DNA of 39,563 bases from Planctomycetota bacterium (GTDB lineage Bacteria; Planctomycetota; UBA11346). Positions 1-14,084 of this stretch are shown here, piece after piece. The first letter of the stretch is position 1. Every line of letters begins with the position of its first letter. The position numbers and the translations under genes are program-made. The stretch covers positions 1-39,563 of the forward strand of contig JBBQSO010000048.1 in NCBI GenBank assembly GCA_038213805.1, read 5' to 3'. The notes under the pieces were generated by a model, which was not told where the DNA came from, did not search any database, and saw only the letters and a program-made list of their open reading frames with translations.

Positions 1-90
1 CTTCGCTTTCCAAGCCTATCGCCTTCAACCCTGCGGCCTGGTCTCACCACCAGCCGCTCAGGGGTGCAAACGCACCCAAGTGAGAACATC

Positions 91-444
91 GTGGAACTCT
101 ACGTAGGCAATCTTCCCTGGTCCGTCACCGATGAGAGCCTCAGCGCCCTCTTCGCCAAGCACGGCGCCGTCACCCGCGCCAAGGTCGTCATGGACCGCGA
201 GAGCGGCCGCAGCCGCGGCTTCGGCTTCGTGACCATGACCAATGATGCCGAAGGCACCGCGGCGATCGCCGCGACCAACGGCAGCCAGCTCGATGGCCGC
301 GCGGTCAACGTGCGCCAGGCTGAAGAGCGCGCCAGCGGCGGCGGCGGCGGCCATGGCGGCGGCGGCGGCGGCGGTGGTGGCTACGGCGGCGGCTCGGGCG
401 GCGGCGGCGGCGGCGGGTACGGCGGTGGCCGTCGCGATCGCTGA
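91..444 (+). CDS. RNA-binding protein (RRM/RNP-1) with Gly-rich C-terminal tail
   Basis: RNP-2 LYVGNL, RNP-1 RGFGFVTM and a poly-Gly/Tyr tail. GTG at 91 is preferred over the ORF-track start at 64. Confidence 0.93.
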   Translation: MELYVGNLPWSVTDESLSALFAKHGAVTRAKVVMDRESGRSRGFGFVTMTNDAEGTAAIAATNGSQLDGRAVNVRQAEERASGGGGGHGGGGGGGGGYGGGSGGGGGGGYGGGRRDR

Positions 445-482: not shown

Positions 483-520
483 AATCGTTGGCGGGGACAT
501 CCCCGCCAACGATTTTTTTT
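483..520 (+). terminator. Rho-independent terminator of the RRM gene
   Basis: Perfect stem AATCGTTGGCGGGG / CCCCGCCAACGATT with ACAT loop, followed by a T run. Confidence 0.9.
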
Positions 521-632
521 GATCAGTTAGGACACTGGCATCGCTCGACTCACGCGAGCGGAACCGGCGTCGAGTTCCCAGCCACAGCGCGCGACGCAAC
601 CCATGCGGCGTCGCACGCGTTCTTCCGCAACC

Positions 633-1097
633 CTACTTCCCGTGGCAGCTGCGCTCCTGCCCGGCCCAGGTGTCGAGCGCCACGCCCGTCTCAAGGAAGC
701 TCTTCAGGCTCGACAGCACGCGCGGCCAGCCGCCGGAAATGCTCGTGGCCATGTCAGATCCTTCCACCAACTGGTCATGGGTGACGCTCAGGCGGACCAT
801 GCCCTGGATGTCGTCGATCGCGAAGGTGACGCGCGAATGCTTGACCTCATCGCCGAAATCGTCCGGCAGCACCCAGGACAGCACCAGGCGCTTGGGCGGC
901 ACACTCTCGCGCACCAGACCGGTGCAGACGGTGGTGCCGTTCGGCGTGCGGTGCTCCCAGCGAGAACCCGCCTGCCAGTCCGAGAAGTTGGCGTTGCCCC
1001 AGTACTTGCTGGCGAACTCCGGCGTGGTGATCGCCGTCCACACCTTCTCGGGCGTGGACTTGATGTAGGTGGTGTAGTGGAATTCGGTGGTGTTCAT
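633..1097 (-). CDS. SRPBCC/AHSA1 (START-like) domain protein
   Basis: YTTYIKSTPEKVWTAIT...PPKRLVLSW...GWPRVLSSLKSFLETG. Its start overlaps the ArsR stop (ATGA). Confidence 0.9.
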   Translation of the reverse strand: MNTTEFHYTTYIKSTPEKVWTAITTPEFASKYWGNANFSDWQAGSRWEHRTPNGTTVCTGLVRESVPPKRLVLSWVLPDDFGDEVKHSRVTFAIDDIQGMVRLSVTHDQLVEGSDMATSISGGWPRVLSSLKSFLETGVALDTWAGQERSCHGK

Positions 1098-1417
1098 GGC
1101 CGGTCTCCTTCGAGGACTTGTTTGAGGTGGTGCAACGCTGCGAGGTGATCGGCCTGGAAGCGGCCGATCCAGCGCAAGGCGATGTCGTGGATCGGGACGG
1201 GATTGAGGTGGTGGAACTTTTCGCGCCCGCGGCGCACGCTCACCACCAGGTTGGCTTCTTCCAGGATGGCGAGGTGCTTCGACACCGCCTGACGGCTCAT
1301 GTCGTGCCCTTCGCAGAGCTGGCCAAGGGCCAGCCCTCCCTCGTCACGCAGACGATCGAGAATGAGCCGTCGGCTGGCATCCGCGAGCGCCTTGAAGACG
1401 AGGTCGTCCGTGGTCAT
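1094..1417 (-). CDS. ArsR/SmtB family transcriptional regulator
   Basis: VFKALADASRRLILDRL...MSRQAVSKHLAILEEANLV...GREKFHHLNPVPI. ATG at 1417, probably leaderless. Confidence 0.92.
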   Translation of the reverse strand: MTTDDLVFKALADASRRLILDRLRDEGGLALGQLCEGHDMSRQAVSKHLAILEEANLVVSVRRGREKFHHLNPVPIHDIALRWIGRFQADHLAALHHLKQVLEGDRP

Positions 1418-1422
1418 GGGGG

Positions 1423-1451
1423 CTTTATGCAACCATTTGGTTGCCTGTCAA
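1423..1451 (-). promoter_or_regulatory. Promoter and palindromic operator of the ArsR-SRPBCC operon
   Basis: TTGACA on the minus strand (1446-1451). The palindrome GCAACCA-TT-TGGTTGC (1429-1444) fills the spacer. The -10 box is weak. Confidence 0.7.
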
Positions 1452-1623
1452 TCACGAGTTCGAGGCCCGCCCCATCAACCCTATGATCGCGACCGCACGG
1501 CACGGGCATCCGCGCAGGCGGAAACGGCCCTTCCGGGGCCCCTACCTCGATATTCACAGACACCTTCCCAGGCCCTATTCCATTCTTCCCATGCTCGCTC
1601 CCCGACCACCGGAACGCCGTGCC

Positions 1624-2958
1624 ATGCCTGCTCATCGACCCCTTGGATTCGCATTACTGGTGCGCACCTGCTTCGTGCTCGTCACGTCCAGCGTCTGCTT
1701 GGCCGCCGTCGAGCCGCCCCCTGCTGCGAACGATCCCGCCACCATCGTCCCCCTCAGCAAGGCCACCTTCTTCCTCTTCGAGGACTTCGAGTCGACGGAG
1801 CCCGGCAAGATCCCCAAGGCCTTCACCCCGGTCGGTTCCGTGGCCGTGGTGGATGACGTGGCCCACACCGGCCGACATGCCCTGCGCCTGAACGCCGCCG
1901 TCAACGGCGCGCGGCAGATCGTCTGGAAGGGCCCGCAGCTGACCGCCATGGGCGGCGAGCACTGGGGCCGCCTCTTCTACCGCGTGCAGCTGCCCTCGCC
2001 CCTGCCCGCCGGCGGCGGCATCCACACCACCATCGTGGTCGGAGCCGGTCTGAGTCCGCTTGCCAAGGACAAGTACGAAGTGCGCCTGATGGGCACCAGC
2101 ACCCGCGCCGATGGCGCGTTCACCTACCTGTACAATGTGCAGCCCTCGCAGGGCCGGGCGGAATTCGGCAAGGGTTCAGGACAGGTCAACCACTACAGCG
2201 ACAACTGGACCCTGGCGGAGTGGTACGTCGATTACGCGACGCAGACCTACCGCTTCTTCATCGACGGCAAGGAGCTCACCGACCTCGCCATCCACAAGGG
2301 CGCGAACGCCTTCGCCGGCGTCGAGATCCCGCAGGTGTTCGATTCGCTCGCCTTCGGCTGGCAGAACTACCAGGCGGCCGCCGGCAGCGGCTTCACCACC
2401 TGGATCGACGACATCGCGCTGACCAAGGAGCGCATCGGCGGCCAGAAGCAGATCAAGCAGGACGAGCCGATGCGTTTTGCGCCGGCGTTCACCCCGCCCG
2501 CCACCGATCCGAAGGTGGCCAAGGTCGAGGACGCGATCGCCAAGGGCCACGTCGGCCACGGTATCAAGGATCTGGAGAAGCTCAGCACCGACAAGGACGC
2601 GAAGGTCGCCGACTGCGCCAAGGCCAGCCTGGCGGTGATCCAGACCTGGAAGGAGCAGAACGACGCCGAATACACGCGCCTGAAAGACTCAGGCGACGTC
2701 TACACCGCCGCCGAGCTCGCCGCCGGAATGGCGACCAGCTACGCGGGCCACGACGCCGCCAAGGACTACCAAGAGCAGGCCGCCACCCTCAAGAAGGACC
2801 CCGCCTATCCCGCCGGCAAGGAATTCCAGAAACTGGCCGAATTTCCTGCCGATCAGCTCAAGGACCCGCGTTTCGTGAAGATGCTCAGGGCGTTCGCGAA
2901 GAAATATCCGATGGGGTATTATTTCGATCTGGCGCAGGCGCTGCTGCCCGACAAGTGA
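1624..2958 (+). CDS. Secreted hypothetical protein: N-terminal beta-sandwich (ConA/Cip1-like) domain plus helical C-terminal domain
   Basis: Signal-peptide-like N-terminus; FEDFES...AHTGRHAL...WIDDIAL pattern of lectin/lyase-like folds; GC3-biased codons. Confidence 0.6.
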   Translation: MPAHRPLGFALLVRTCFVLVTSSVCLAAVEPPPAANDPATIVPLSKATFFLFEDFESTEPGKIPKAFTPVGSVAVVDDVAHTGRHALRLNAAVNGARQIVWKGPQLTAMGGEHWGRLFYRVQLPSPLPAGGGIHTTIVVGAGLSPLAKDKYEVRLMGTSTRADGAFTYLYNVQPSQGRAEFGKGSGQVNHYSDNWTLAEWYVDYATQTYRFFIDGKELTDLAIHKGANAFAGVEIPQVFDSLAFGWQNYQAAAGSGFTTWIDDIALTKERIGGQKQIKQDEPMRFAPAFTPPATDPKVAKVEDAIAKGHVGHGIKDLEKLSTDKDAKVADCAKASLAVIQTWKEQNDAEYTRLKDSGDVYTAAELAAGMATSYAGHDAAKDYQEQAATLKKDPAYPAGKEFQKLAEFPADQLKDPRFVKMLRAFAKKYPMGYYFDLAQALLPDK

Positions 2959-3018
2959 CGCGGCCGGTACGGCGATGGCGTGGAGCGGCCGGGCGCGGTC
3001 AGCGAGGGGCCGGGTCTG

Positions 3019-3966
3019 CTAATCGCCCCACTTCCAGGAATCCATGATGGTCTTCATCGGGACCTGCACGTCGATGCTCTCGATGGCGCACGCCATGAGC
3101 AGGTACAGCTGGCCCTTGGTGACCGCGGCCAGGACCATTTGCGGCTGATCCATGGTCTTCGCATCGGTCCTGCCGACGACGCAGTCGACGCCATCGAGTT
3201 TCGCGTACTCGTACTGCACGATGTTCAGCGTGTCGCCGGCGAAACTGAACAGGAGGACGTCCAGCCGGTCGCTGAGCGATCGCGCGACGTCCGCCACGTC
3301 GACTTTGATGATGCCGCTGTGGATCCTGGCGATGGGCGCCAGGATGGCCTTGGTCTTGGCCCGGTCGGGCCTGCCCGAGAACCAGCCACCCGGGATCCCA
3401 TGCTGGAAGCCCGCGAACTTCCCCACGGGGCAACCGGCTTCGCCGCTGATGCCCTCCAGGAACAGCGAGGTGTGCGGCGAGATCCGCCCGGGGGCCACGA
3501 CGCTGGCGAGGAAGGCGTGCCACGCATCGAGGGTGTGACCGTCGGCCTTCCCCGCATGGCAGAAGGTCAAGGTGAACATCTTGCCTCCGACCTCCTTGAA
3601 CGATGCGTTCTCAACCATGACCAGGGTCTTGTCGTCATTTTCCGCGTGGAACGACATCATGGGAATGGCGTTGAACACCTGGTCGTCGACGCTGGTCACC
3701 CGCATGCCGAGCTTGGCCGACGCTTCGGCGAAGCCCTCCATGGCCCCCTTCCGCTCCAGGAGGACATGGTGCGGATTGTCGATGCTGGTGATGGCCAGCA
3801 CCGACCTGCCATCCGCACTCGTGTACTTCTCGGTGTGCGGGTCCGTGCCGGTCACTTCTTTGGCCCATCCCGACGGCGCCGCGTAGTCCAGCACCCCATC
3901 GGCGGCTTCGGCGGCCTGGGCGCCCAGGAGCGCGATCAGCAGGAACTGGAGTGCGTGCGTGCGCAT
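3019..3966 (-). CDS. Secreted hypothetical protein, possibly two PsbP/DcrB-like repeats
   Basis: Start MRTHALQFLLIALLGAQAAEA looks like a signal peptide. The upstream extension to 4410 in the ORF track looks non-coding. Confidence 0.65.
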   Translation of the reverse strand: MRTHALQFLLIALLGAQAAEAADGVLDYAAPSGWAKEVTGTDPHTEKYTSADGRSVLAITSIDNPHHVLLERKGAMEGFAEASAKLGMRVTSVDDQVFNAIPMMSFHAENDDKTLVMVENASFKEVGGKMFTLTFCHAGKADGHTLDAWHAFLASVVAPGRISPHTSLFLEGISGEAGCPVGKFAGFQHGIPGGWFSGRPDRAKTKAILAPIARIHSGIIKVDVADVARSLSDRLDVLLFSFAGDTLNIVQYEYAKLDGVDCVVGRTDAKTMDQPQMVLAAVTKGQLYLLMACAIESIDVQVPMKTIMDSWKWGD

Positions 3967-4216
3967 ATCCCGAGCGATGCGAAGGTGACGAGGACCGCAG
4001 CCGATCCGGCGAGCATGCGCGACGACCGTCATTGGCAATTGGAAAGGGGCGCTGCTCAGCGGCGCTGGAGCTGCGCGAGCAGGGGCTGCGGCTGAGTGGC
4101 GTCGGACGGTCTCAGATGAAGGCAGCGGCTCCGCCGCGCTCTGGACAGCATTTCGCGGAAGGACCAAAACGCGTGAGCACGGCGTCGCGGCATGCCACTT
4201 GTGCGGATAGTCGGAG

Positions 4217-4383
4217 CGCAGATTCACAATGTAAGTGCAACAGCGCCCAAAACCAGAAGCCAGGGCCATCGAGCGGCATGGAATCGGCCCCAGCCAGGAG
4301 GGCGGAGCCCGATGACCTATCAGCAACTGACACTCGAGGAGCGACGCATCATGGTATCCTGAAAAAAACAGAATTTCTTCTGA
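4217..4383 (+). mobile_element. IS30-family remnant: left end plus truncated transposase N-terminus (4312-4362)
   Basis: End-like sequence GATTCACAATGTAAGTGCAACA, then AGGAGG and ATG at 4312 encoding MTYQQLTLEERRIMVS*KKQNFF*, which resembles the IS30 HTH start (YxQLTxEER). Confidence 0.65.
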
Positions 4384-4444
4384 ATGCGCGTCCTTTCCCT
4401 GAATTTCCATAGGCTACCCATGGGAACCGGATATTGATCCGATC

Positions 4445-7400
4445 TTATCCAATGGAGAAATCCGTGGTGGAATTGAGCATATTTTGAGCGCTTGGATCCT
4501 GCGATTCAATCAAAGCATCCCAGGCGTCGAGTGCTCGGCCACGGACCATTGTGTCATTCACTTGCTCCGCCTTTGCGGCCAGTGCAAGCAGGGCATTCAC
4601 GGCCAGCTCGGCATTTGATTCGCGCCGCCACTTCTCCTTTGGTGTCTGAGGATTCAGCGCGATAATATGATTGACCATGGTCAAAACTTCCGCTGATATG
4701 CTGACGATATCGCCCGATTTGCAACAAACCTCAAGCATATCGTGCGGATCATTGCGCGCTGCCGCACTCATTGCCATCCGTGGAAAGAATCCCGGAATGT
4801 CTAATAGGTGATCCGATTTATTCCGGAACATTCGCACCATAGCTTCGCCAACGGCCGCACTCGCGTCATTGGCAAATTTTATAGCGAGCTCTCGCATCCA
4901 TACGGCCGGAAATTTGTCTTCCACTAGGCCATCTGCCAGAGTCGAAGCAGCCGCTTCTCGGGCAGATTCAGAAATGTTCAATGCGACGAGGAGTCTGTCC
5001 TCTGTTATTTGGTCCCACGCGCGGAGAATGAGAGCCGATCGACCACCGCGACGAGAGATGCGATCGTCTCGCCCGATGAGAGCCAGCAGCGCCTCGATGG
5101 CCCGAGAGCGCTGGTCTGCCATCGCTTCGGTGGCGCGAGCCAGCACGAGAAGAGAATGGCCAATGTCATCTTCTGCTGCAACCTGGTCATCCATCGCCAC
5201 CGTCAGCAGCAGTGTATATGCACGATGTGGATCGGCTGACCTCGCGCGAATGGCAAGCATGCCCGCACTCGCACGTCGCCCAATGTCTTCGTGAGCGGTC
5301 AGGTCTCCGGCAATATTGAGACACCGCGGCCGTAGTGATTCGTGCTGCGAGGCAAGGCCTCCCAGTGCTTCGACGGCGCGACACGCGCGCTCGTTCAATC
5401 TGTAATTGATAAGTTCATCGTCTTCCTTCAGTGAAATTCCCGGAACTGCTTTACCGCGAGCGAGATCTTCCAGGCGCTTAACAACTGCCTCGCTCCACTC
5501 GTGCTTGGGCCGCAGGCGAGCCGCCTCGATGAGAGCGGGAGCGAGCTTTTCGCTCGCCAATATCCTAGGAATGAGAAGAATTTTCTCGACCGAGGCATCG
5601 TCAAGCGGCTCCCACGAGCCTCGGGGCGGCGGGCGATCCGGCGGAGTGATTTTGATAAGTCCGTCGATGACCGCTTCCAGCACTGCTTCCGGCAATGGAG
5701 GGACGGAAGCAAGGAACCGCTCCATTCCATCCATGAATTTATTGGGGTTTTTCGGAACAATATACCGCAACTGGCCGATGCGTGTACCCACATCGCCGGC
5801 AAGAACTATGTGCTCAGGACCTTCAGGAAACGTCCGCACTGCCGGAGATGCTGCATTCATCAACTTATCGATCCACTCGGGTACCGTAAGGGACAAAGCG
5901 GTCGAATCGTCGATATCGGATCTGACCCAACCCCCTCGGAATTGGATGCCATCTTCGTCCCGTGGCTTTTTATTTCCGAATCGCAATGTCAACGCCGCGA
6001 AGAGCTCGGTGGTTGTCGATGACCAGCGTCGCTGATCCATAGACGCGAGAAGCCGGAAGCAGATTTCGTTTGCCGCATCCAGGTCTTCGGTGGTTGGCGG
6101 ATTCGGACTCGTCGGGAGCGATCCCGGATGCGTCGGGTAGGCTGCCACCCACCGCTCAAGCGCGTGATGCATGGTGTCATCAAGGCGCGGGCAAATGGCA
6201 CGCAAGAAAAGTCGCGCATACTTGCTGTTTACAAAGTTTTGTCCTACCCCCAGCCGGCTGAGGGACGGGTCTGCCAAGAACCATGCGGCAGCCGCTGACA
6301 GGACACCGCTGGGAGCGGCATCGGCATCCAGCGCCGCTCCGACACGCAGCAAGAGCCAGTCATCAAGCGGGCGATGAGCCTCGGGGAGTTCAGACACAAG
6401 ATTTTCCCAGGTGATCTCAGCGGTGCCGAGAGCATGGGCCAGCACCTGGCTCAAGATGTCGACTACGACCACGATCACTGCGTCACTGCGCTTAGAGCCG
6501 TGCACGGTGCGATGGATTTGCCACAAGTGTTCCACATCGAACCGCGCCCAACGCGCGCGCAGCAATCGCCAGGTCTGCAGGCCAGTAATCCGAATGGAGT
6601 GAGGGAGGTTTTCCGGCCAACCGTGAAGCCAATCTGGAGGAGATCTTTCTATCAACTCCTCATTTTCCGCTAGGTCTATATGGTGGCTCAGGAGTCTGAG
6701 CGCGCGCATGGCATTAGCTTCCAGCAACTTTTCCCACTTGATATAATGATCGCGCAGGTGCTTGCCATCCGCATAGTGCTTCACGCGCAGCTCGAAAAGG
6801 CTTTCGCTGTCCTCGGAAGGATCCTGCAGGAAGACGATATCCGCCTGGGTAAGAACCGTGGGATCGTTCTGAAGCCATGCTCCGAGACAGGCAGCAACCA
6901 GATCTCCACGACTTCTCCCAACCGCAGCCAAGAGTCGGAGAAGGGAATTGCGTACTTCAGGACGTGCCGTTGGCCAAGCCTGCGTGATCCAAGGCTGAAG
7001 CGCGTCCATCCAGGCAACGCGATTATAGATGACCATCGCGAAAACCACGCCTTGATACTGCGGTTCCTCAAGCCACCCGACTATCTGGCGCACCCAACTC
7101 GGATCTGGCGCGTCGATCGCGGCGATTCCGAGCAGCATGGAACGCTTGAGCATAGGACGGATATCGCCACTCCTCAGGATATCGTTGCACAACGCGGAAC
7201 CCTGACGGCCGAGGTTGGCGAAAAGCAGTACTGCGAGACGGAGTCGGCGCGCATGATGGAGGCTTTGCTCTTGGCGGCTTCCGAGCCGGGCACGCAGATC
7301 AGCGAAGGACTGGACCTCGCTCCACTGGCGCGCAAGCCAGACATCGACCAGCACCTGGTGGAACGGACGAACCTGATCGCGTCCATCGACGAAGAGCACT

Positions 7401-8974
7401 CCGGAGGTGATAAGCGCATCTACCACGGATGACGGCTGTAGCCGGAGCCGATCGAGAGAGAGAAGGCCCGTACGCTCGACGCCATTCACGAGGGTATCCA
7501 TTATCTGGTCAGCCACGGAGCCATGAGGCTCTCTGAGACGTTCCCACCAACGCACGACAAGATCGAGGATGGTGCGCGTACGGGAATAATTCCCACCACG
7601 TCTCACCAGTTGCGCGAGCAAATGCAAGACAATGGGCCGGCGGGTGAGCGGCACCAGATCGGGATGCAACGTCGTGATGGCAATGCCGATTTCGCTCAGG
7701 ACCGCTGTGGCCTGGGATTCGGTAAGCACGCCGATCGGAACCTTCAAATAACGATCCGCAGAATCGGGGCACAGAACACGCCGTAGCTGCGTGTCGTGAT
7801 CCACGTCGATCGTGCGACACCCGACTATGACGACGATGTTGAGGGCCCTGGCGAGCTGGATCCACATCATGATCGGGATGAGGTGGTGTTGGGCGCGCTC
7901 CCCGGCGAGGGTCAGTTGGTCTAATTGGTCAATGATCAGACAGGCTCGGTATTCACCGGCGTAGGCCCTCAGCGAGCGGACAGGGTCACTGGATGATGTC
8001 CAGCTTGCGGCTTCTTCGGCACGCATGACGAGGAGCGGTATCTTGGCATCTTTGAGGCGCGAGATGGTTTGAAGGATTACCTCGGTCTTTCCGACGCCTG
8101 CAGGACCATGCACGATGATGGTTTGCGCACGTTCCGTGTCGCGCGCTGCATTCGCTACGACCTCGGATTCTGGCCTGGAAATGGACGTCAGGAGTCGCAC
8201 CGCACCAACAGACTGTAGAAACGCCGCAACCGTCGCATCCAAGACGACACCCATGCGGTCATTGGAAACGCGCGCGAGTAGGGGCACGTGGGATACTGCG
8301 AGGTGGTGGCGGACCATCTCGGTGGTCAGCGTCGTGGAAAGCGAGCTCCGAGCTAGGGCGAGAAGGGAGCTGATGAGCAAATCGGGGGCTGATGAAAGCG
8401 CGGTTGCGAGCACACGAATCTGCTCTTGCAGCGTCCTATGATCGACGACTTGGGCGCGCATGCGGCGTACGAGTCCATACGCCTCGACGACGTCTTCGGG
8501 GCGATTGGGATTCAAGCCGAACCCGTCAAAAACTTGCGCAATAAATCCTCCAACCTTCCCATCCGTTGCTGCCCATTGAGCTGGGCTTTCGACAGCATGC
8601 GCGGTCGCGATGACCGCTGTCAGCGATGGCGCGCTTTCATTGGAAGAAAAACGGAATTCCCCGGCAACCTTCTCGTCGCTCCTGGTGAGTTGCACCCGTG
8701 CGTAGGCAAGGACGCTCCTGCTTTTCGTCCCATTTTTCAACTGACGCTGCTTTTTGAGATCGGCCATGGTCCATGGCTCGGTGCTCTTGGTCTTATACTG
8801 GATAGCAATCCGCTCACGGCCGCGCGTAATCCAACAATCGACGCCCAGTCCATCCTGAAGCGACCCTTCCCAGAGAAGCGATTGTTCTTGTTCGTCGGCA
8901 ACCAGAAGGAGATGCCAGATGACACCGTCCTCCTCGTACCAGTTGCCAAGCTTATCGAAGATTCCTCCACTCAT
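4445..8974 (-). CDS. Large STAND/NACHT-like NTPase with N-terminal PD-(D/E)xK-type nuclease and long helical C-terminus (Avs/NLR-like defence candidate)
   Basis: N-terminal GGIFDKLGNWYE...GVDCW...AIQYK; Walker A GPAGVGKT (8084-8107); Walker B LIIDQLD; sensor VGCRT; RRPIVL; RPFHQVLVD. GGAGGA RBS lies before ATG 8974. GC is lower than the flanks. Confidence 0.8.
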   Translation of the reverse strand: MSGGIFDKLGNWYEEDGVIWHLLLVADEQEQSLLWEGSLQDGLGVDCWITRGRERIAIQYKTKSTEPWTMADLKKQRQLKNGTKSRSVLAYARVQLTRSDEKVAGEFRFSSNESAPSLTAVIATAHAVESPAQWAATDGKVGGFIAQVFDGFGLNPNRPEDVVEAYGLVRRMRAQVVDHRTLQEQIRVLATALSSAPDLLISSLLALARSSLSTTLTTEMVRHHLAVSHVPLLARVSNDRMGVVLDATVAAFLQSVGAVRLLTSISRPESEVVANAARDTERAQTIIVHGPAGVGKTEVILQTISRLKDAKIPLLVMRAEEAASWTSSSDPVRSLRAYAGEYRACLIIDQLDQLTLAGERAQHHLIPIMMWIQLARALNIVVIVGCRTIDVDHDTQLRRVLCPDSADRYLKVPIGVLTESQATAVLSEIGIAITTLHPDLVPLTRRPIVLHLLAQLVRRGGNYSRTRTILDLVVRWWERLREPHGSVADQIMDTLVNGVERTGLLSLDRLRLQPSSVVDALITSGVLFVDGRDQVRPFHQVLVDVWLARQWSEVQSFADLRARLGSRQEQSLHHARRLRLAVLLFANLGRQGSALCNDILRSGDIRPMLKRSMLLGIAAIDAPDPSWVRQIVGWLEEPQYQGVVFAMVIYNRVAWMDALQPWITQAWPTARPEVRNSLLRLLAAVGRSRGDLVAACLGAWLQNDPTVLTQADIVFLQDPSEDSESLFELRVKHYADGKHLRDHYIKWEKLLEANAMRALRLLSHHIDLAENEELIERSPPDWLHGWPENLPHSIRITGLQTWRLLRARWARFDVEHLWQIHRTVHGSKRSDAVIVVVVDILSQVLAHALGTAEITWENLVSELPEAHRPLDDWLLLRVGAALDADAAPSGVLSAAAAWFLADPSLSRLGVGQNFVNSKYARLFLRAICPRLDDTMHHALERWVAAYPTHPGSLPTSPNPPTTEDLDAANEICFRLLASMDQRRWSSTTTELFAALTLRFGNKKPRDEDGIQFRGGWVRSDIDDSTALSLTVPEWIDKLMNAASPAVRTFPEGPEHIVLAGDVGTRIGQLRYIVPKNPNKFMDGMERFLASVPPLPEAVLEAVIDGLIKITPPDRPPPRGSWEPLDDASVEKILLIPRILASEKLAPALIEAARLRPKHEWSEAVVKRLEDLARGKAVPGISLKEDDELINYRLNERACRAVEALGGLASQHESLRPRCLNIAGDLTAHEDIGRRASAGMLAIRARSADPHRAYTLLLTVAMDDQVAAEDDIGHSLLVLARATEAMADQRSRAIEALLALIGRDDRISRRGGRSALILRAWDQITEDRLLVALNISESAREAAASTLADGLVEDKFPAVWMRELAIKFANDASAAVGEAMVRMFRNKSDHLLDIPGFFPRMAMSAAARNDPHDMLEVCCKSGDIVSISAEVLTMVNHIIALNPQTPKEKWRRESNAELAVNALLALAAKAEQVNDTMVRGRALDAWDALIESQDPSAQNMLNSTTDFSIG

Positions 8975-9054
8975 GGGATATCCTCCAGGGCCGTAGCGAT
9001 ACCGTGCCAAGGAATGAGACGATCGACACCGAGGGGGCGTACGTCGTCACCTCC

Positions 9055-10158
9055 TTAGATGACGAATCCAGGTGCGATGGCGGATCCGCCCTGTCCCGCG
9101 GCGATACCTCGCAGTTTCCGGATGGGTCCGGCATCGCTCCTATCTGGCGTCAATGAAGCTTTGATCTCCACTGGTATCAAGCCGCTTCCGCTCTCCAGGA
9201 CCACATCGATTTCAAGGCCATCGTTTGACCGCCACACCCAGAGGTTGTCGCGCCGTCCGCGATGGAGGCGAGTCTTGAGAATCTCCGATACACACCAGGT
9301 CTCAACGAGTGCGCCCCAATTGGGATGTGTGGTGACCTGTTGGAGGTCACTGATGTGCAGAAGTCGACAGGCGAGTCCGGAGTCGAGGAAGTAGAGTTTC
9401 GGTGCTTTGGTAATGCGCTTACCGAAGTTGCGATCATGAGGACGCAACAACCGGATGACGTAGCACGCCTCGAGGACGCCCAGCCACGCTGAAACCGTGT
9501 TGTGCTGAATGCCGATGGCTTGGCCGAGGCCGGACAGGTTGACCGCCTGCCCCGTGTAGGTGGCACAGAGTTGGATGAACCGACTGAACGCCAGGCGATC
9601 CCGGATTTCCAAAAGCTGTCGGACATCGCGGTCGATGAATGCGGCAATATACTGATCCAGCCAGCCATTGGGCTCGGGCGCAGTTTCATCGTAGAGACGG
9701 GGATACCCGCCGCGAAAGACCGCTTCGGCGAGGGTTCGTGGGCGACGGGTACTGGTGGTTAATTCGGCATGGGAAAATGGCAGCAACTCGAGGCGGATGA
9801 CACGTCCGGCCAGCGATTGAGCGAGGTTGCGTCCCAATTGGAGCTGATGCGATCCCGTTAGGATCCAACGTCCGCGTGAGCGATCGGCATCAACCCGGGC
9901 CTGGATGTAGGACATGAGCTCGGGAACGTGTTGCACTTCATCGAGAATCGCACCGTCTGGAAAGCGCGCGAGGAATTGCACAGGGTCTTGCGTCGCCTCT
10001 GCCCGCTCAAATGGATGTTCCAGGTTGACGTAGCGCAAATCCGGTGCAGCCGCCTCCGCGAGGACGGTTTTGCCGGATTGGCGCGGACCGGTAATGGCGA
10101 TTACCGGATAGGAGGCTCGGTGCCTGGGAACGAGGGGGGTGAGGGTGCGTGGAAGCAT
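9055..10158 (-). CDS. AAA+ ATPase with DUF4143 domain (AAA_14-DUF4143), probably truncated by a premature stop; original end 8971
   Basis: ITGPRQSGKT, ILDEVQ, ILTGS, GGYP, KAPKLYFLDSGL, GALVET, EIDVV...PVEIKAS. The frame continues after TAA as GGDD...LIPW. Confidence 0.9.
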   Translation of the reverse strand: MLPRTLTPLVPRHRASYPVIAITGPRQSGKTVLAEAAAPDLRYVNLEHPFERAEATQDPVQFLARFPDGAILDEVQHVPELMSYIQARVDADRSRGRWILTGSHQLQLGRNLAQSLAGRVIRLELLPFSHAELTTSTRRPRTLAEAVFRGGYPRLYDETAPEPNGWLDQYIAAFIDRDVRQLLEIRDRLAFSRFIQLCATYTGQAVNLSGLGQAIGIQHNTVSAWLGVLEACYVIRLLRPHDRNFGKRITKAPKLYFLDSGLACRLLHISDLQQVTTHPNWGALVETWCVSEILKTRLHRGRRDNLWVWRSNDGLEIDVVLESGSGLIPVEIKASLTPDRSDAGPIRKLRGIAAGQGGSAIAPGFVI

Positions 10159-10164
10159 CTCGGC

Positions 10165-10197
10165 AATATGGTAATCCTATTGACAATTTGCATAGGA
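10165..10197 (-). promoter_or_regulatory. Putative promoter with overlapping inverted repeat upstream of the AAA/DUF4143 gene
   Basis: Minus strand reads ATGCAA-17 nt-CATATT a few nt before the ATG. Inverted repeat TCCTAT-N11-ATAGGA at 10175-10197. Confidence 0.4.
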
Positions 10198-10567
10198 AAT
10201 CCCTGAAAAGTCGTAACTTATTGCAATTACTACTTTAATGTAATTCTAAATTAGCGCATATGCTTTTGCGGCGAGGTAAAGGGCTTTGTGGAACTGAACC
10301 ATTGGCTTGGCGACGCGCCGCTCAACCTGCCTGACGGCGGGCAAGCCAGCAATCTCTTATCCGAATCTGTGGATACCTAGCGGTGGGCGCCCTCCCGGTA
10401 CCTAAAATGGACGCCATCGCACGCTCAGAGCCAACTTGCCACCGCTCTCCGAGGCCATCCCTCGGCGAACATTCCAGGCATGACCCGCGCGCCGTGAGAT
10501 ACCCAATGATTCGCACCTGAGATGCCTCGGGCGATTACCCAGGCTGGGCGAATATGATCACAACGCC

Positions 10568-10589
10568 TGGGGAACACTTTGGGGAACAC
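10568..10589. repeat. Tandem direct repeat TGGGGAACAC x2 (possible integrase arm-type sites)
   Basis: Exact 10-mers at 10568-10577 and 10580-10589, about 60 bp beyond the tRNA 3' end. Confidence 0.5.
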
Positions 10590-10608
10590 ACCGTCAACCC
10601 TAGAAACG

Positions 10609-10641
10609 AAAAAACCCCTGTAAGCCATTGGCCTACAGGGG
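10609..10641 (-). terminator. Hairpin/terminator downstream of tRNA-Val
   Basis: CCCCTGTA-AGCCATTGGCC-TACAGGGG stem, followed on the minus strand by T6. Confidence 0.75.
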
Positions 10642-10649
10642 CTTATCTT

Positions 10650-10726
10650 TGGTACCCGATAGTGGACTTGAACCACTGACCCCCACCATGTCAAGGTGGT
10701 GCTCTAGCCAACTGAGCTAATCGAGT
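10650..10726 (-). tRNA. tRNA-Val(GAC)
   Basis: Reverse complement folds as ACTCGAT-TA-GCTC AGTTGGCTA GAGC-A-CCACC TTGACAT GGTGG-GGGTC-AGTGG TTCAAGT CCACT-ATCGGGT-A-CCA. Confidence 0.97.
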
Positions 10727-10746
10727 ATATCGGCGATGCGGCGCAG

Positions 10747-10774
10747 AGGATGGCGTGTCGAGCGCCGCCGTCAA
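10747..10774 (-). promoter_or_regulatory. Putative sigma70 promoter of tRNA-Val
   Basis: TTGACG-16 nt-CATCCT followed by a GC-rich discriminator, about 20 nt upstream of the tRNA. Confidence 0.55.
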
Positions 10775-10915
10775 GGCGTTCGCGCAGCTGGCGGGGCGAA
10801 AGCTATAAAATGTTGATGTAACACATGTTAATAGATGGGCCAGCTTCCAGCTCGTGGCTCCAAGGGCGCGCGTTTGCAGGCGCGCATTCCAGCAGCGGGG
10901 CGGACGCGACGCGCC

Positions 10916-11368
10916 TCACCCCGCCTTCACCAGCACCACCCCACCGAGCAGCATCCCCGCACCCGCCAGCTTCGCGAGACTGAACTCGTGCACCGGCAGG
11001 CCCATCAGACCCCAGTGGTCGATCAGCAGCGTGCCGAGGAGCTGGCCCGCGACCACACAGGCGATCATGGTCGCGGCGCCCAGGCGGGGGGCGACGATGA
11101 TAACCATCGACACGAACAGCGCGCCCATCAGGCCGCCCAACCAAGACCACCACGGCGCCTGGGCGAGGCCGCTCAGCGGAGGCAGCGGCACGCGCATGCC
11201 GGCGCAGGTGATGAGCAGCAGCACCAGACCGACCACGAACGACGCCACCGCTGCCCACAGGGTGTGACCGGTCCACAGCTTGAGCTGGGTGTTCATGCCG
11301 GTCTGCATGGCGAGCAGCACGCCGCCAATGAGCGAGGCCGCGAGGCAGAGGACGATCTTGGGATCCAT
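10916..11368 (-). CDS. DMT family transporter (YdcZ/DUF606-like)
   Basis: QTGMNTQL, SFVVG, PWWSWLGGLMGA, GQLLGTLLIDHWG; hydrophobic throughout. Confidence 0.9.
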   Translation of the reverse strand: MDPKIVLCLAASLIGGVLLAMQTGMNTQLKLWTGHTLWAAVASFVVGLVLLLITCAGMRVPLPPLSGLAQAPWWSWLGGLMGALFVSMVIIVAPRLGAATMIACVVAGQLLGTLLIDHWGLMGLPVHEFSLAKLAGAGMLLGGVVLVKAG

Positions 11369-11734
11369 CAAGGCACCGGAGGGAAAGAAGTGGACGGCAG
11401 GAGGGCCAGAGCACGGGCGACAGGGAGAGCAGGAGAACGGAGACCGGCGACTACGGACAACCTCCATGCAGGCCCGGTTCCTTCAAGAGCCATAGGCCAG
11501 ATTCCGCCCTCACGCTGAGGCCCTGCACCGGTAAATCGCGTGTTTCCGCACCATGCGGGCCACTTCGCGCAGCGCAATTCACCGCTCGCCCTCCTTCCCT
11601 CGTGCTTCCCCTGCCTTCTCTTCCGCCCTGCCTCCTTCCCGCGTCCTCCAAGGTTGAGCAGACTTCCACGCCACGTGGCACCTGTCCTTGCCCTGCCGTC
11701 ACCGCCCGGTGTCATCCGCGTCCCGGAGGCCGCC

Positions 11735-12163
11735 ATGTCCCATCCCGTCCAGAATTATGCCAACCACCGCCGGATCCCGCCAGTGCACCTCGCGGCAGGC
11801 GTGATCCTGCTGATCGAGCTGGGGTGGCATTGCTGGCACATCTTCCACGGCGACAACGTGCACTTCCTGGGCGCGGCGGCCAACCTGGCGGTGCTCAGCA
11901 TCTGGCACGCCTCGCGGCGCAACGCGCAGATCATGCAGGATCGCATCATCCGCCTGGAGATGCAGGTGCGCCTGGCACGCCTGCTGCCGGTGGAACGCCA
12001 CGCCGAAATCGCGCGCCTGACCCTGCCGCAGCTGGTCGGCCTGCGCTTTGCCGGCGACACGGAGCTGCCCGCACTGGTCCAGAAGACGCTGGCCGAGAAT
12101 CTCGGCAGCAACGCGATCAAACGCCTGGTCACCGACTGGCAGCCCGACTGGCTGCGCGTGTGA
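11735..12163 (+). CDS. DUF6526-like small membrane protein
   Basis: QNYANHRR...QDRIIRLEM...QLVGLRFAGDTEL...WQPDWLRV; GGAGG RBS. Confidence 0.75.
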   Translation: MSHPVQNYANHRRIPPVHLAAGVILLIELGWHCWHIFHGDNVHFLGAAANLAVLSIWHASRRNAQIMQDRIIRLEMQVRLARLLPVERHAEIARLTLPQLVGLRFAGDTELPALVQKTLAENLGSNAIKRLVTDWQPDWLRV

Positions 12164-12236
12164 GCGGCGTCGACGGCACAGCGGCGGATCGCACATGACC
12201 AAGGGACTGAAGGCCGAAGGCCGCGGGAGAGCCGGA

Positions 12237-14084
12237 ATGGCCGACGACAAGGACAAGAAGAAACGCCCGATCCGCTGGTCGGCCGCCTGGGGCGAGGCGC
12301 GCGTGCTGCTCGCGGCCCACCGCGGGCGGCTGGCCTTCGGGCTCGGAGTGCTGGTCATCGACCGCGCGCTGGGCTTCGCCCTGCCGGCCAGTTCGAAGGT
12401 GCTGATGGACTATGTGGTCCGCGACCACCGCAATGATTTGCTGCTGCCGCTCGCCATCGGCGTCGGCGCCGCGGCGGTGCTGGGCGCGGGCACCTCGTAC
12501 GCGCTCTCGCAGGTGCTGGGGGTGGCCGCGCAGAAGGCCATCACCGACATGCGCAAGACCGTCCAGGCCCACATCCTGCGCCTGCCGGTGCGCTACTTCG
12601 ACGAGCACCAGTCCGGAGCGCTGATCTCGCGCATCATGACCGACGCGGAAGGCGTGCGCAATCTGGTCGGCAATGGCATCGTGCTGCTGGTCGGCGGCCT
12701 GTTCTCGGCACTGGTCGCCACCAGCGTGCTGTTCTACCTGAACTGGCACCTGACGGCTTTCATCCTGGTCGCCCTGGCGGTGTTCGGCGGCTGCATGGCC
12801 ATGGCCTTCACCCGCCTGCGCCCGCTGTTCCGCGAACGCGGCAAGATCAACGCGGAAGTCACCGCTCGCCTGGCCGAGACCCTCGGCGGCATCCGCATCG
12901 TCAAGGCCTACACCGCCGAGCCGCGCGAGCGCACGGTGTTCGCCAGCGGCGTCGACCGGCTGTTCGCCAACGTGCGCAACTCGATCACCGGGGTGTCCGC
13001 GGTCACCGCGGTCTCGACCATGATCATCGGCGCGATCGGCGTGGTGATGATCGTCTTCGGCGGCAACGCCATGCTCGCCGGCACCATGTCCACCGGCGAC
13101 TTCATCTTCTACCTGGCGCTGGTCGCGATGGTCGCCGCGCCGATGATCCAAATCACCTCGATCGGCACGCAGATCACCGAGGCCTTCGCCGGTCTCGACC
13201 GCATCAGCGAGATCCGCCAGCTCGCCACCGAGGACGCTGGCGACGAGGCGCGCGCGCCCTGTCCGACGGTGGAGGGGACGATCGCGTTCCGCGAGGTCGG
13301 CTTCTCGTACCAGGAAGGCGTGCCGGTTCTCAAGGGCGTCTCGTTCGACACCCCGGCGGGAACCACCACCGCGCTGGTCGGCTCGAGCGGTTCGGGCAAG
13401 AGCACGCTGGTCAGCCTGATCATGGCCTTCAACCGCGCGCAGTCCGGCAGCGTGACCATCGACGGGCGCGAGCTGGCGGGGCTGCGCCTGCGCGACTACC
13501 GCAGCAAACTGGGCGTGGTCATGCAGGACAACTTCCTGTTTGACGGCTCGGTCGCCGAGAACATCAGCTTCGGGAAGCCCGAGGCGACGCGCGACGAGGT
13601 CCTGGCAGCGGCGCGCATCGCCAACTGCGACGAGTTCGTACGCGGCTTCGAAAAGGGCTACGACACCGTGGTCGGCGAGCGCGGCGTGCGTTTGTCCGGC
13701 GGCCAGCGGCAGCGCATCGCCATCGCGCGCGCCCTGCTCGCCGACCCGCGCATCCTGATCCTGGACGAGGCGACCTCAGCGCTGGACAGCGAGAGCGAGG
13801 CGGCCATCCAGGCCGGCCTGCAGGCGCTGCGCAAGGGCCGCACTACCTTCGTCATCGCCCACCGCCTGTCGACCATCCGCGAGGCCGACCAGATCCTGGT
13901 GCTGGAGGCCGGGGCGATCGTCGAGCGCGGCACCCACGAGCAGCTGATGGCCAACGAGGGGCGCTACCGCCAGCTCCACGACCGCCAATACCGCTTTGAG
14001 CGGGAGCGCTACCTCAACCCGGGAGAAGAGCCTGCGGCAGAGGGACGTGGAGCGCGACACGGCCCGACGTCGCAGCAAGCGTGA
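12237..14084 (+). CDS. ABC transporter fused permease/ATP-binding protein (MsbA-like exporter)
   Basis: TM domain plus GSSGSGKS, LSGGQRQR, ILILDEATS, IAHRLST. Alternative start at 12195. Confidence 0.95.
   Translation: MADDKDKKKRPIRWSAAWGEARVLLAAHRGRLAFGLGVLVIDRALGFALPASSKVLMDYVVRDHRNDLLLPLAIGVGAAAVLGAGTSYALSQVLGVAAQKAITDMRKTVQAHILRLPVRYFDEHQSGALISRIMTDAEGVRNLVGNGIVLLVGGLFSALVATSVLFYLNWHLTAFILVALAVFGGCMAMAFTRLRPLFRERGKINAEVTARLAETLGGIRIVKAYTAEPRERTVFASGVDRLFANVRNSITGVSAVTAVSTMIIGAIGVVMIVFGGNAMLAGTMSTGDFIFYLALVAMVAAPMIQITSIGTQITEAFAGLDRISEIRQLATEDAGDEARAPCPTVEGTIAFREVGFSYQEGVPVLKGVSFDTPAGTTTALVGSSGSGKSTLVSLIMAFNRAQSGSVTIDGRELAGLRLRDYRSKLGVVMQDNFLFDGSVAENISFGKPEATRDEVLAAARIANCDEFVRGFEKGYDTVVGERGVRLSGGQRQRIAIARALLADPRILILDEATSALDSESEAAIQAGLQALRKGRTTFVIAHRLSTIREADQILVLEAGAIVERGTHEQLMANEGRYRQLHDRQYRFERERYLNPGEEPAAEGRGARHGPTSQQA

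Follow-up and report, generated by a model that had tools for sequence, protein, structure and literature searches.

A putative Avs7-like STAND gene and a PDC-S01-type ATPase gene in a small, horizontally acquired islet of a Planctomycetota bacterium

Do two neighbouring genes of a planctomycete, one for an ATPase with a DUF4143 domain and the other for a protein of about 1500 amino acids (aa), make up a single antiphage system, and would that system be new? The question was raised by a sequence-only reading of a window of 39,563 nucleotides (nt) (positions 1 to 39,563 of contig JBBQSO010000048.1, Planctomycetota bacterium assembly GCA_038213805.1). Both genes lie on the minus strand: gene 1 at 9055..10158 (ATG start, 367 aa) and gene 2 at 4445..8974 (ATG start, 1509 aa), the frame of gene 2 being extendable upstream to a TTG at 9010 according to the list of open reading frames (ORFs). 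The reading that we favour, with a probability of roughly 0.55, is that they constitute a horizontally acquired two-gene islet in which gene 2 encodes a divergent STAND protein of the Avs7 type and gene 1 a PDC-S01-type accessory or second module, the two being inherited as a unit. What is new here is the clade-specific, probably translationally coupled Avs7-like/PDC-S01 cassette; the Avs7 lineage was already described and mechanistically solved, and the partner is a known candidate gene.

The affinity of gene 2 was assessed through its relatives. An exhaustive HMMER search with residues 1-1200 gave, at E <= 1e-3, 890 representatives of clusters, 76 of which reached E <= 1e-30. These proteins are mostly about 1500 aa long, and in our genome survey (69 loci, 1.31 Mb) the open frames were 1,299-1,773 codons long in 61 of the 69 loci. 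The family had one strong sequence-profile match in the PDB, namely 9n00_A (1523 aa; entries 9n00, 9n01 and 9yix), the SeAvs7 protein. It was hit by the first alignment (A1, E 1.3e-42), by a profile made from the clade of the window only (A8, 25 rows; E 4.5e-36, residues 46-550 against 46-571), by a second group of relatives (A9, 21 rows; E 1.3e-41, with 52.9 bits in the sensor region) and by the single relative P0015 (E 9.6e-17); another single relative, P0180, had no PDB sequence match at E <= 1e-3. A wider profile (A4, 43 rows, with the C-terminal part of the window's protein placed first) reached E 1.5e-56, aligning over 47-631 at 160 bits and, in the sensor, over 968-1493 against SeAvs7 987-1521 (37 bits, independent E-value 5.7e-9). 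The clade and the second group aligned with each other over their full length (A8 against A9, hhalign probability 100, E 7e-95, 1418 columns).

The three PDB entries occur in the available text of Lee et al. (Nature 2026; PMC13581612), where SeAvs7 of Salmonella enterica is presented as a 1523-residue protein with a Cap4 nuclease, a STAND module and a TPR sensor, which has the major capsid protein of the phage as its trigger, takes in EF-Tu and, on tetramerising, cuts DNA. The same text delimits Avs7 by its bilobed sensor domain, credits the family with N-terminal effectors of at least 20 alternative kinds and with extensive horizontal transfer, and treats it as a single-gene system, SeAvs7 defending on its own in E. 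coli. Judged from the alignments, gene 2 is probably a very divergent member of this lineage. It has nearly the same length as SeAvs7 (about 1500 against 1523 aa) and the same predicted order of a Cap4-type PD-(D/E)xK nuclease at the N-terminus, a helical linker, a STAND NTPase and a long alpha-helical sensor; the profile match is collinear from residue 46 to about 630 and, with the wider relatives, from about 970 to the C-terminus, and the Walker A Lys, the Walker B Asp, the Arg and the winged-helix His are all kept. The novelty that the sequence-only reading had implied for the large protein is not upheld, since profiles of the family matched SeAvs7 from the nuclease to the winged helix and, once wider relatives were included, in the C-terminal sensor as well; a full-length match to a known single-gene Avs type, which that reading had itself listed as telling against it, is largely what we found in Avs7. 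The gene differs from SeAvs7 in its great distance, in the lack of a match for the middle of the sensor and in sharing an operon with a DUF4143 gene.

The domain anatomy of gene 2 agrees with the effector-STAND-sensor layout proposed from the sequence. Residues 1-115 (8630..8974, minus strand) form a putative Cap4-like PD-(D/E)xK nuclease core, delineated from conserved columns and an AlphaFold2 (AF2) model, with E14, E36, D46 and Q59-x-K61 as its marks. The motif GVD...IQYK noticed earlier corresponds to D46, Q59 and K61, of which Q59 was invariant in 55 of 55 rows and the other two were kept in at least 90%; in the AF2 model the three residues are located on a helix-strand-strand-strand element, as in the restriction-endonuclease fold, and the core aligns with the Cap4 strands of SeAvs7 from residue 46. 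The helical linker between nuclease and NTPase (residues 116-265, 8180..8629, minus strand) consists of AF2 helices at 116-259 and is collinear with SeAvs7 46-250. It is followed by the STAND NTPase module (residues 266-560, 7295..8179, minus strand), which was defined by invariant columns, fold matches and the clade profile against SeAvs7. Here the P-loop GPAGVGKT (residues 290-297) has invariant G and K positions, and the Walker A segment G290-T297, the Walker B-like IDQLD with D349/D352, R387 and the winged-helix histidine H539 are invariant or nearly so. K296/T297, D349/D352, R387 and H539 align with the corresponding STAND segments of SeAvs7, for which the text at hand names Thr291, Lys292, Asp358, Arg395 and His545 (PMC13581612). 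The remainder (residues 561-1509, 4448..7294, minus strand) is modelled as an all-alpha solenoid, the presumed sensor (pLDDT, the score of the predicted local distance difference test, 89.1; all helices).

Fold comparison pointed in the same direction. The AF2 model of residues 1-640 (pLDDT 91.4) had Avs3 (7e-13) and Avs4 (2.2e-10) as best PDB matches, before NLRP3, Apaf-1 and others, and the model of residues 600-1509 (pLDDT 89.1) a C-terminal alpha-solenoid with only generic matches of the HEAT/karyopherin type (karyopherins, CAND1, SF3B1; TMq 0.15-0.28). No 9n00 chain was present among the best 50 Foldseek matches listed for the C-terminal model (PDB copy to 2026-04-08). Avs3 and Avs4 (AVAST types 3 and 4; PDB 8dgc and 8dgf) are likewise nuclease-STAND-helical-sensor proteins that sense phage proteins, but the TM-scores to gene 2 were low (0.27-0.30) and only parts superpose; the NCBIfam Avs4 model gave 16.8 bits against a cut-off of 1500, the PADLOC Avs4 model E 0.0069 over the P-loop only (residues 285-333), and gene 2 stayed below the cut-off of all AVAST Avs1-5 models of PADLOC and NCBIfam. 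The large protein of PDC-M54A, an untested multi-gene PADLOC candidate, matched 9 of the 10 scanned gene 2 relatives over the NTPase region (best 2.5e-24 in L048; 3.1e-7 in L001), but these matches cover the NTPase part only and the window protein had none at E 0.1.

Matches to individual domain families remained at the margin. The Pfam model nSTAND_NTPase5 (PF25199) gave 21.9 bits for gene 2, below the gathering threshold of 34, and 20.6-32.9 bits for six scanned relatives; PF25199 occurs in the precomputed annotation of 7 of 11 gene 2 homologs, and a link at the family level between the relatives of gene 2 and nSTAND_NTPase5 is likely. The name nSTAND5 was not mentioned in the literature searched. 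Gene 2 also has a sub-threshold Pfam AAA match. For the nuclease, Pfam Cap4_nuclease (Cap4/DUF4297, PF14130) matched the N-terminal domains of 3 of 32 relatives (best 2.5e-5) and not that of the window, PADLOC LmuA scored 0.049 for the window protein and 6.8e-8 for a relative (L027), and a PDB profile search with the N-terminal 240 residues returned only chance-level 14-3-3 matches.

As in Avs7, for which the available text describes many different N-terminal effectors along with traces of horizontal transfer, the N-terminal effector is exchanged among the relatives of gene 2: a TIR domain is found in L038, PNP_UDP_1 in L023 and an LmuA-like domain in L027, and one relative is borne on a plasmid (of an Isosphaeraceae member), where it stands alone beside repA. 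The gene with the PNP_UDP_1 phosphorylase effector (L023, 8708-13939, Rhizobiales) encodes about 1743 aa, and the one with the LmuA/Cap4-like N-terminal domain (L027, 9200-13777) belongs to Salegentibacter. At five loci (L017, L028, L046, L047 and L049, from about position 10000) the large gene is broken into two successive ORFs, which group with C-terminal parts of the family; these could be frameshifts, pseudogenes or assembly errors. A role outside immunity, with gene 2 as a regulator of the STAND type or a housekeeping ATPase and with an unrelated ATPase in gene 1, finds a footing in the interspersion of defence and non-defence STAND clades described in the available text of PMC13581612, but is very improbable in view of the nuclease effector with its conserved catalytic residues, the swapping of TIR, PNP and LmuA-like effectors, the homology to SeAvs7, the plasmid-borne relatives, and the foreign composition and tRNA-side location of the locus.

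Gene 1 encodes an AAA_14 ATPase with a DUF4143 PD-(D/E)xK domain (Pfam AAA_14 5e-25, DUF4143 2.8e-46) and matched the PADLOC model of PDC-S01 (PDLC04790) at 1.1e-98, with residues 1-351 against 11-384 of 422. A PADLOC run, which the sequence-only reading had suggested as a check, was informative for one gene of the pair only: it identified gene 1 as PDC-S01 and gave no significant match for gene 2. No PDC-M54 model of PADLOC was matched by gene 1, and a PDB profile search found no solved relative. In an alignment of the window protein with 10 homologs the Walker A motif (P-loop GPRQSGKT, residues 24-31) was invariant in 11 of 11 rows, as were E316, D318 and E331 of the motif EID...VEIK (E316, D318, E331 and K333), and K333 was kept in 9 of the 11, with Asn in L001 and Arg in P0028. 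The P-loop and PD-(D/E)xK-like motif noticed in each of the two genes fall on conserved columns, and none of these features rests on pattern matches at chance level. Homologs of gene 1 are very numerous (6569 matches among 8000 candidates scored; 250 plasmid records).

As far as the accessible parts of these sources go, DUF4143 is a PD-(D/E)xK family of unknown function (PMC3424549), a DUF4143-related restriction endonuclease is mentioned as an effector domain (10.64898/2026.10.19.760177), and PDC-S01 is one of 145 untested candidates (10.1101/2024.01.29.577857) and, reportedly, the fourth most common defence across prokaryotes (PMC12988326). It is presented there as a single-gene candidate that was defined through its embedding in other defence systems (10.1101/2024.01.29.577857, PMC12988326). 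Gene 1 has the same architecture of ATPase and PD-(D/E)xK domain (PMC12988326, available text); it differs in being operonic with an Avs7-like gene and in being 28 residues short.

The association of the two genes recurs in the clade of the window. Gene 1, when read through its stop codon, ends in a TGA (8973-8971) that overlaps the ATG of gene 2 (8974-8972), as had been noticed from the sequence. The only member of the window's clade in the genome collection, L001 (a contig of a Thermoanaerobaculia metagenome-assembled genome (MAG)), has a gene 1 homolog of 57-58% identity whose TGA overlaps the GTG of a gene 2 homolog of 32% identity, and this 4-nt stop/start overlap has the geometry of the read-through frame in the window. 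The two genes behave as one operon, as the sequence-only reading had supposed, the same overlap being found in L001 at 57%/32% identity. Three further cassettes were inferred from gene 1 and gene 2 homologs located on contigs of identical size (99431, 9523 and 11200) and source. Pair by pair over the five cassettes, identity in gene 1 correlates with identity in gene 2 (r = 0.985, from 10 non-independent pairs that fall into two groups), and gene 1 is always the more conserved one, with 78/47, 77/49, 57/32 and 56/32% identity to gene 1/gene 2 of the window. A profile hidden Markov model of gene 1, run against all ORFs of the 69 loci, matched only in L001 and L038, both times directly upstream of the large gene and in the same orientation.

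L038 is a second, very distant instance of a DUF4143/STAND pairing. In this Planctomycetota MAG contig, at 7114-12998, a co-oriented AAA_14-DUF4143 gene that is only 25% identical to gene 1 lies 171 nt upstream of a gene 2 relative with a TIR_2 domain (1494 aa), and the next gene further upstream encodes a DUF4175 protein. Both L001 and L038 are isolated pairs beside non-defence genes (PMT glycosyltransferase, DUF4175). When ORFs within 4 kb were clustered over the 69 loci, shared neighbours were seen only in seven Pseudomonas/Xanthomonas loci, and these were the housekeeping genes guaB and guaA. In these seven genomes (L056, L058, L060, L061, L062, L064 and L066, about 5400-13810) a relative of about 1540 aa lies directly downstream of guaB and guaA, which suggests a common insertion spot.

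Two attempts to extend the pairing were uninformative. A search for N-terminal gene 2 fragments on the short contigs that carry the nearest gene 1 homologs had no scoring match, P-loop words having probably swamped the candidates, and a complex prediction with the gene 1 protein of L001 and residues 1-600 of its partner, run without controls, gave a score of 0.00, which argues neither for nor against binding. In the accessible parts of the literature we found no description of a DUF4143 gene paired with an Avs or STAND protein. The earlier suggestion that the pairing may be undescribed holds to that extent.

The base composition marks the two genes off from their surroundings. Over 4001-10500 the guanine-plus-cytosine (GC) content in 1-kb windows is 0.56-0.60, against 0.64-0.70 over 501-4000 and 10501-14000, and at third codon positions (GC3) it is 0.655 in gene 1 and 0.619 in gene 2, against 0.80-0.91 in five flanking ORFs. 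The islet is about 6.2 kb long and contains only genes 1 and 2; both are compositionally foreign, and it was acquired horizontally, beside a tRNA-Val gene at 10650-10726. This is the pair of co-oriented, lower-GC minus-strand genes adjoining a tRNA that the sequence-only reading had described, and what that reading had observed was borne out in each particular. No integrase is present within the islet, and the 3' end of the tRNA has no second copy in the window at up to 3 mismatches; neither a tRNA-derived direct repeat nor an att site was seen.

At the junction between the genes, gene 1 stops at a premature TAA (9057-9055), its homologs being 386-447 aa long (most 395-400), and 28 more codons follow in frame up to the TGA in the ATGA overlap. 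This cut-off tail (8971..9054, minus strand) aligns with conserved C-termini of the homologs, and G370, R374, P383, W384 and I387 were invariant in 11 rows when the read-through product was aligned with X at the stop. At the broken codon 7 of 10 homologs have Tyr, 2 have Asn and 1 has Ser, and L001 has TAC; compared with this TAC, the TAA looks like a one-base nonsense change at the third position. Because gene 2 itself ends in TAA (4445-4447), TAA is not reassigned in the cassette. The truncation costs gene 1 a constrained segment and uncouples its termination from the start of gene 2. A Shine-Dalgarno-like hexamer, GGAGGA (8981..8986, minus strand), read from the sequence 6 nt 5' of the start codon of gene 2, might allow independent translation of that gene. 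The 8 bases right after the premature TAA (9047-9054, minus strand), GGAGGTGA, also have a strong Shine-Dalgarno-like character; they encode the conserved Gly-Gly of the tail and, at about 70 nt from the gene 2 ATG, are too distant to serve gene 2. With gene 1 truncated, the two-gene system may be half-decayed in the window.

It is unlikely that the TAA is no biological truncation but an error of assembly or sequencing, or else a stop subject to read-through, gene 1 really having 395 aa. The 28 codons past it do remain in frame with all conserved residues, and only a third-position change separates it from the TAC of L001. On the other hand, TAA is a stop in the cassette, as the end of gene 2 demonstrates; a recoding signal was neither sought nor seen, the 367-aa form is the one that the protein collection lists for this contig, and a recent nonsense mutation would look identical.

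The same junction bears on the proposal that the genes form an obligate two-component system, in which the DUF4143 protein is required as co-effector, loader or regulator and the cassette of the window is inactive through the TAA. The conserved operon with its translational-coupling geometry, the stronger conservation of gene 1 and the strong conservation of the very tail that is lost here would all fit. Against this stand the relatives, most of which work, or at least exist, without gene 1, the defence by SeAvs7 alone in E. coli (PMC13581612, available text) and the fact that, next to a broken gene 1, gene 2 has kept an open frame of 1509 codons; we regard an obligate pair as distinctly unlikely. 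Gene 1 is probably not an obligatory subunit, because most Avs7-like relatives lack it and because it is truncated by 28 conserved residues beside an intact gene 2 that comes with a putative ribosome-binding site for itself.

Several observations weigh against the two-gene, Avs7-type reading of the islet. For gene 2, the window protein on its own (P0003) had no PDB sequence match at E <= 1e-3 and no significant named match in Pfam, PADLOC or NCBIfam, only sub-threshold ones; the clade-only profile gave just 7.9 bits on the SeAvs7 sensor; and residues of about 630-970, the N-terminal sensor lobe, had no detectable match in SeAvs7. For the pairing, a DUF4143 partner was present in just 2 of the 64 genomic relatives that could be assessed (the other 5 loci have less than 1 kb upstream). 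Adjacency was read directly in one other clade member (L001), the three size-matched cassettes being indirect, and four clade members (P0005, P0006, P0011 and P0012) had no size-matched gene 1 among the 120 homologs listed. Moreover, in 3 of 3 inspected plasmid contexts gene 1 homologs lacked a STAND neighbour, the gene 1 homolog of L001 (1651-2847) reads EIN for EIK, the Lys of its ExK motif being replaced by Asn, and neither a promoter nor a terminator of the two-gene operon was identified. In view of this Asn and of the Arg in P0028, the nuclease activity of the DUF4143 partner may not be universally kept. The linkage among homologs that the sequence-only reading had named as a check recurs within the clade of the window and is missing from 62 of the 64 assessable relatives; a general pairing is not supported by these counts, and DUF4143 genes are mostly solitary.

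These counts give some weight to another explanation, in which a stand-alone PDC-S01-type gene, of a sort that frequently lies within defence loci or next to them, and a self-sufficient Avs7-like gene merely travel together and their overlap reflects compaction of a mini-island and not cooperation. We consider this a real, if minority, possibility. Avs7 was described as a single-gene system (PMC13581612, available text), 62 of the 64 assessable relatives are without a DUF4143 neighbour, the relative on the Isosphaeraceae plasmid stands alone beside repA, the abundant gene 1 homologs were solitary in all three contexts inspected, PDC-S01 is, in the accessible text, a single-gene candidate whose definition rests on its being embedded in other systems, and in the window it is gene 1 that is truncated and gene 2 that is intact. 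Mere co-travel is harder to reconcile with an overlap of 4 nt that is retained at 57%/32% identity, with the co-divergence of genes 1 and 2 over five cassettes, with a very distant DUF4143 gene (25% identity) upstream of the TIR-bearing relative in L038, and with the isolation of the L001 and L038 pairs among non-defence genes, outside large defence islands. In the favoured reading, of a two-gene islet inherited as a unit, gene 1 is most likely to serve as an accessory or a second module. It is also possible, though we put this forward tentatively, that the PDC-S01-type ATPase-nuclease is a working partner in one Avs7-like lineage, for instance as a second effector aimed at DNA or as a regulator licensed by the STAND protein.

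By analogy with SeAvs7, the C-terminal alpha-solenoid of gene 2 would bind a conserved phage protein, which would lift the autoinhibition and allow ADP to be swapped for ATP. The NTPase modules would then oligomerise and gather the N-terminal Cap4-like PD-(D/E)xK domains, and the gathered nucleases would cut double-stranded DNA and abort the infection. The trigger may differ from that of SeAvs7, because residues of about 630-970 match nothing in that protein. Gene 1 would be co-transcribed with gene 2 and is probably translationally coupled to it, because it is fixed directly upstream in the clade of the window with a 4-nt stop/start overlap.

The borders of the islet and its neighbours were also inspected. 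The tRNA-Val gene (10650..10726, minus strand; ARAGORN, Rfam tRNA 62.8 bits) has the anticodon GAC and its 3' end points towards the islet. Immediately past it lies a terminator-like hairpin with a T run (10612..10644, minus strand), a consensus match with a stem of 15 pairs. The leader between this putative terminator and gene 1 (10159..10611, minus strand) has, on reading the sequence, an AT-rich stretch directly 5' of the ATG; the GC content over 10159-10649 is 0.527. No sigma-70-type sites were found in the leader, and the promoter was not identified.

On the other side of the islet, the ORF at 3019-4410 (minus strand) was considered as a third operon gene and rejected; it has a GC3 of 0.80, matches no Pfam family and is likely to start only at about 3966. 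A segment resembling a signal peptide follows this probable start, which sets the ORF apart from the operon. The first 148 codons appear to be non-coding and, judging from the signal-peptide-like start, MRTHALQFLLIALLGAQAAEA, the product may be a secreted protein of about 315 aa. Further away, an ORF on the plus strand that is open at the 5' end of the window (1-444) contains an RRM_1 RNA-recognition motif (2.2e-20), a domain that is uncommon in bacteria. Between 633 and 1432 (minus strand) lie a small regulator of the ArsR/HTH_20 type (1094-1432) and, after it, a protein of the AHSA1/SRPBCC type (633-1097); the pair resembles a regulatory unit of two genes that has nothing to do with the cassette of genes 1 and 2.

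The characterisation of Avs7 as a capsid sensor encoded by one gene dates only from 2026, and the locus would extend this lineage to a very divergent clade in uncultured bacteria, the sensor of which has diverged enough for a possibly different trigger. The overlapping operon with a DUF4143 gene is a more useful lead than this extension. If the two genes merely travel together, the locus is an ordinary small defence islet; if gene 1 is a working partner, the locus would provide the first functional context for the PDC-S01 family and the first two-component variant of Avs7. PDC-S01 genes are very common and without a known role, and a cassette that joins one of them to a sensor of known mechanism would offer a tractable test of what they do.

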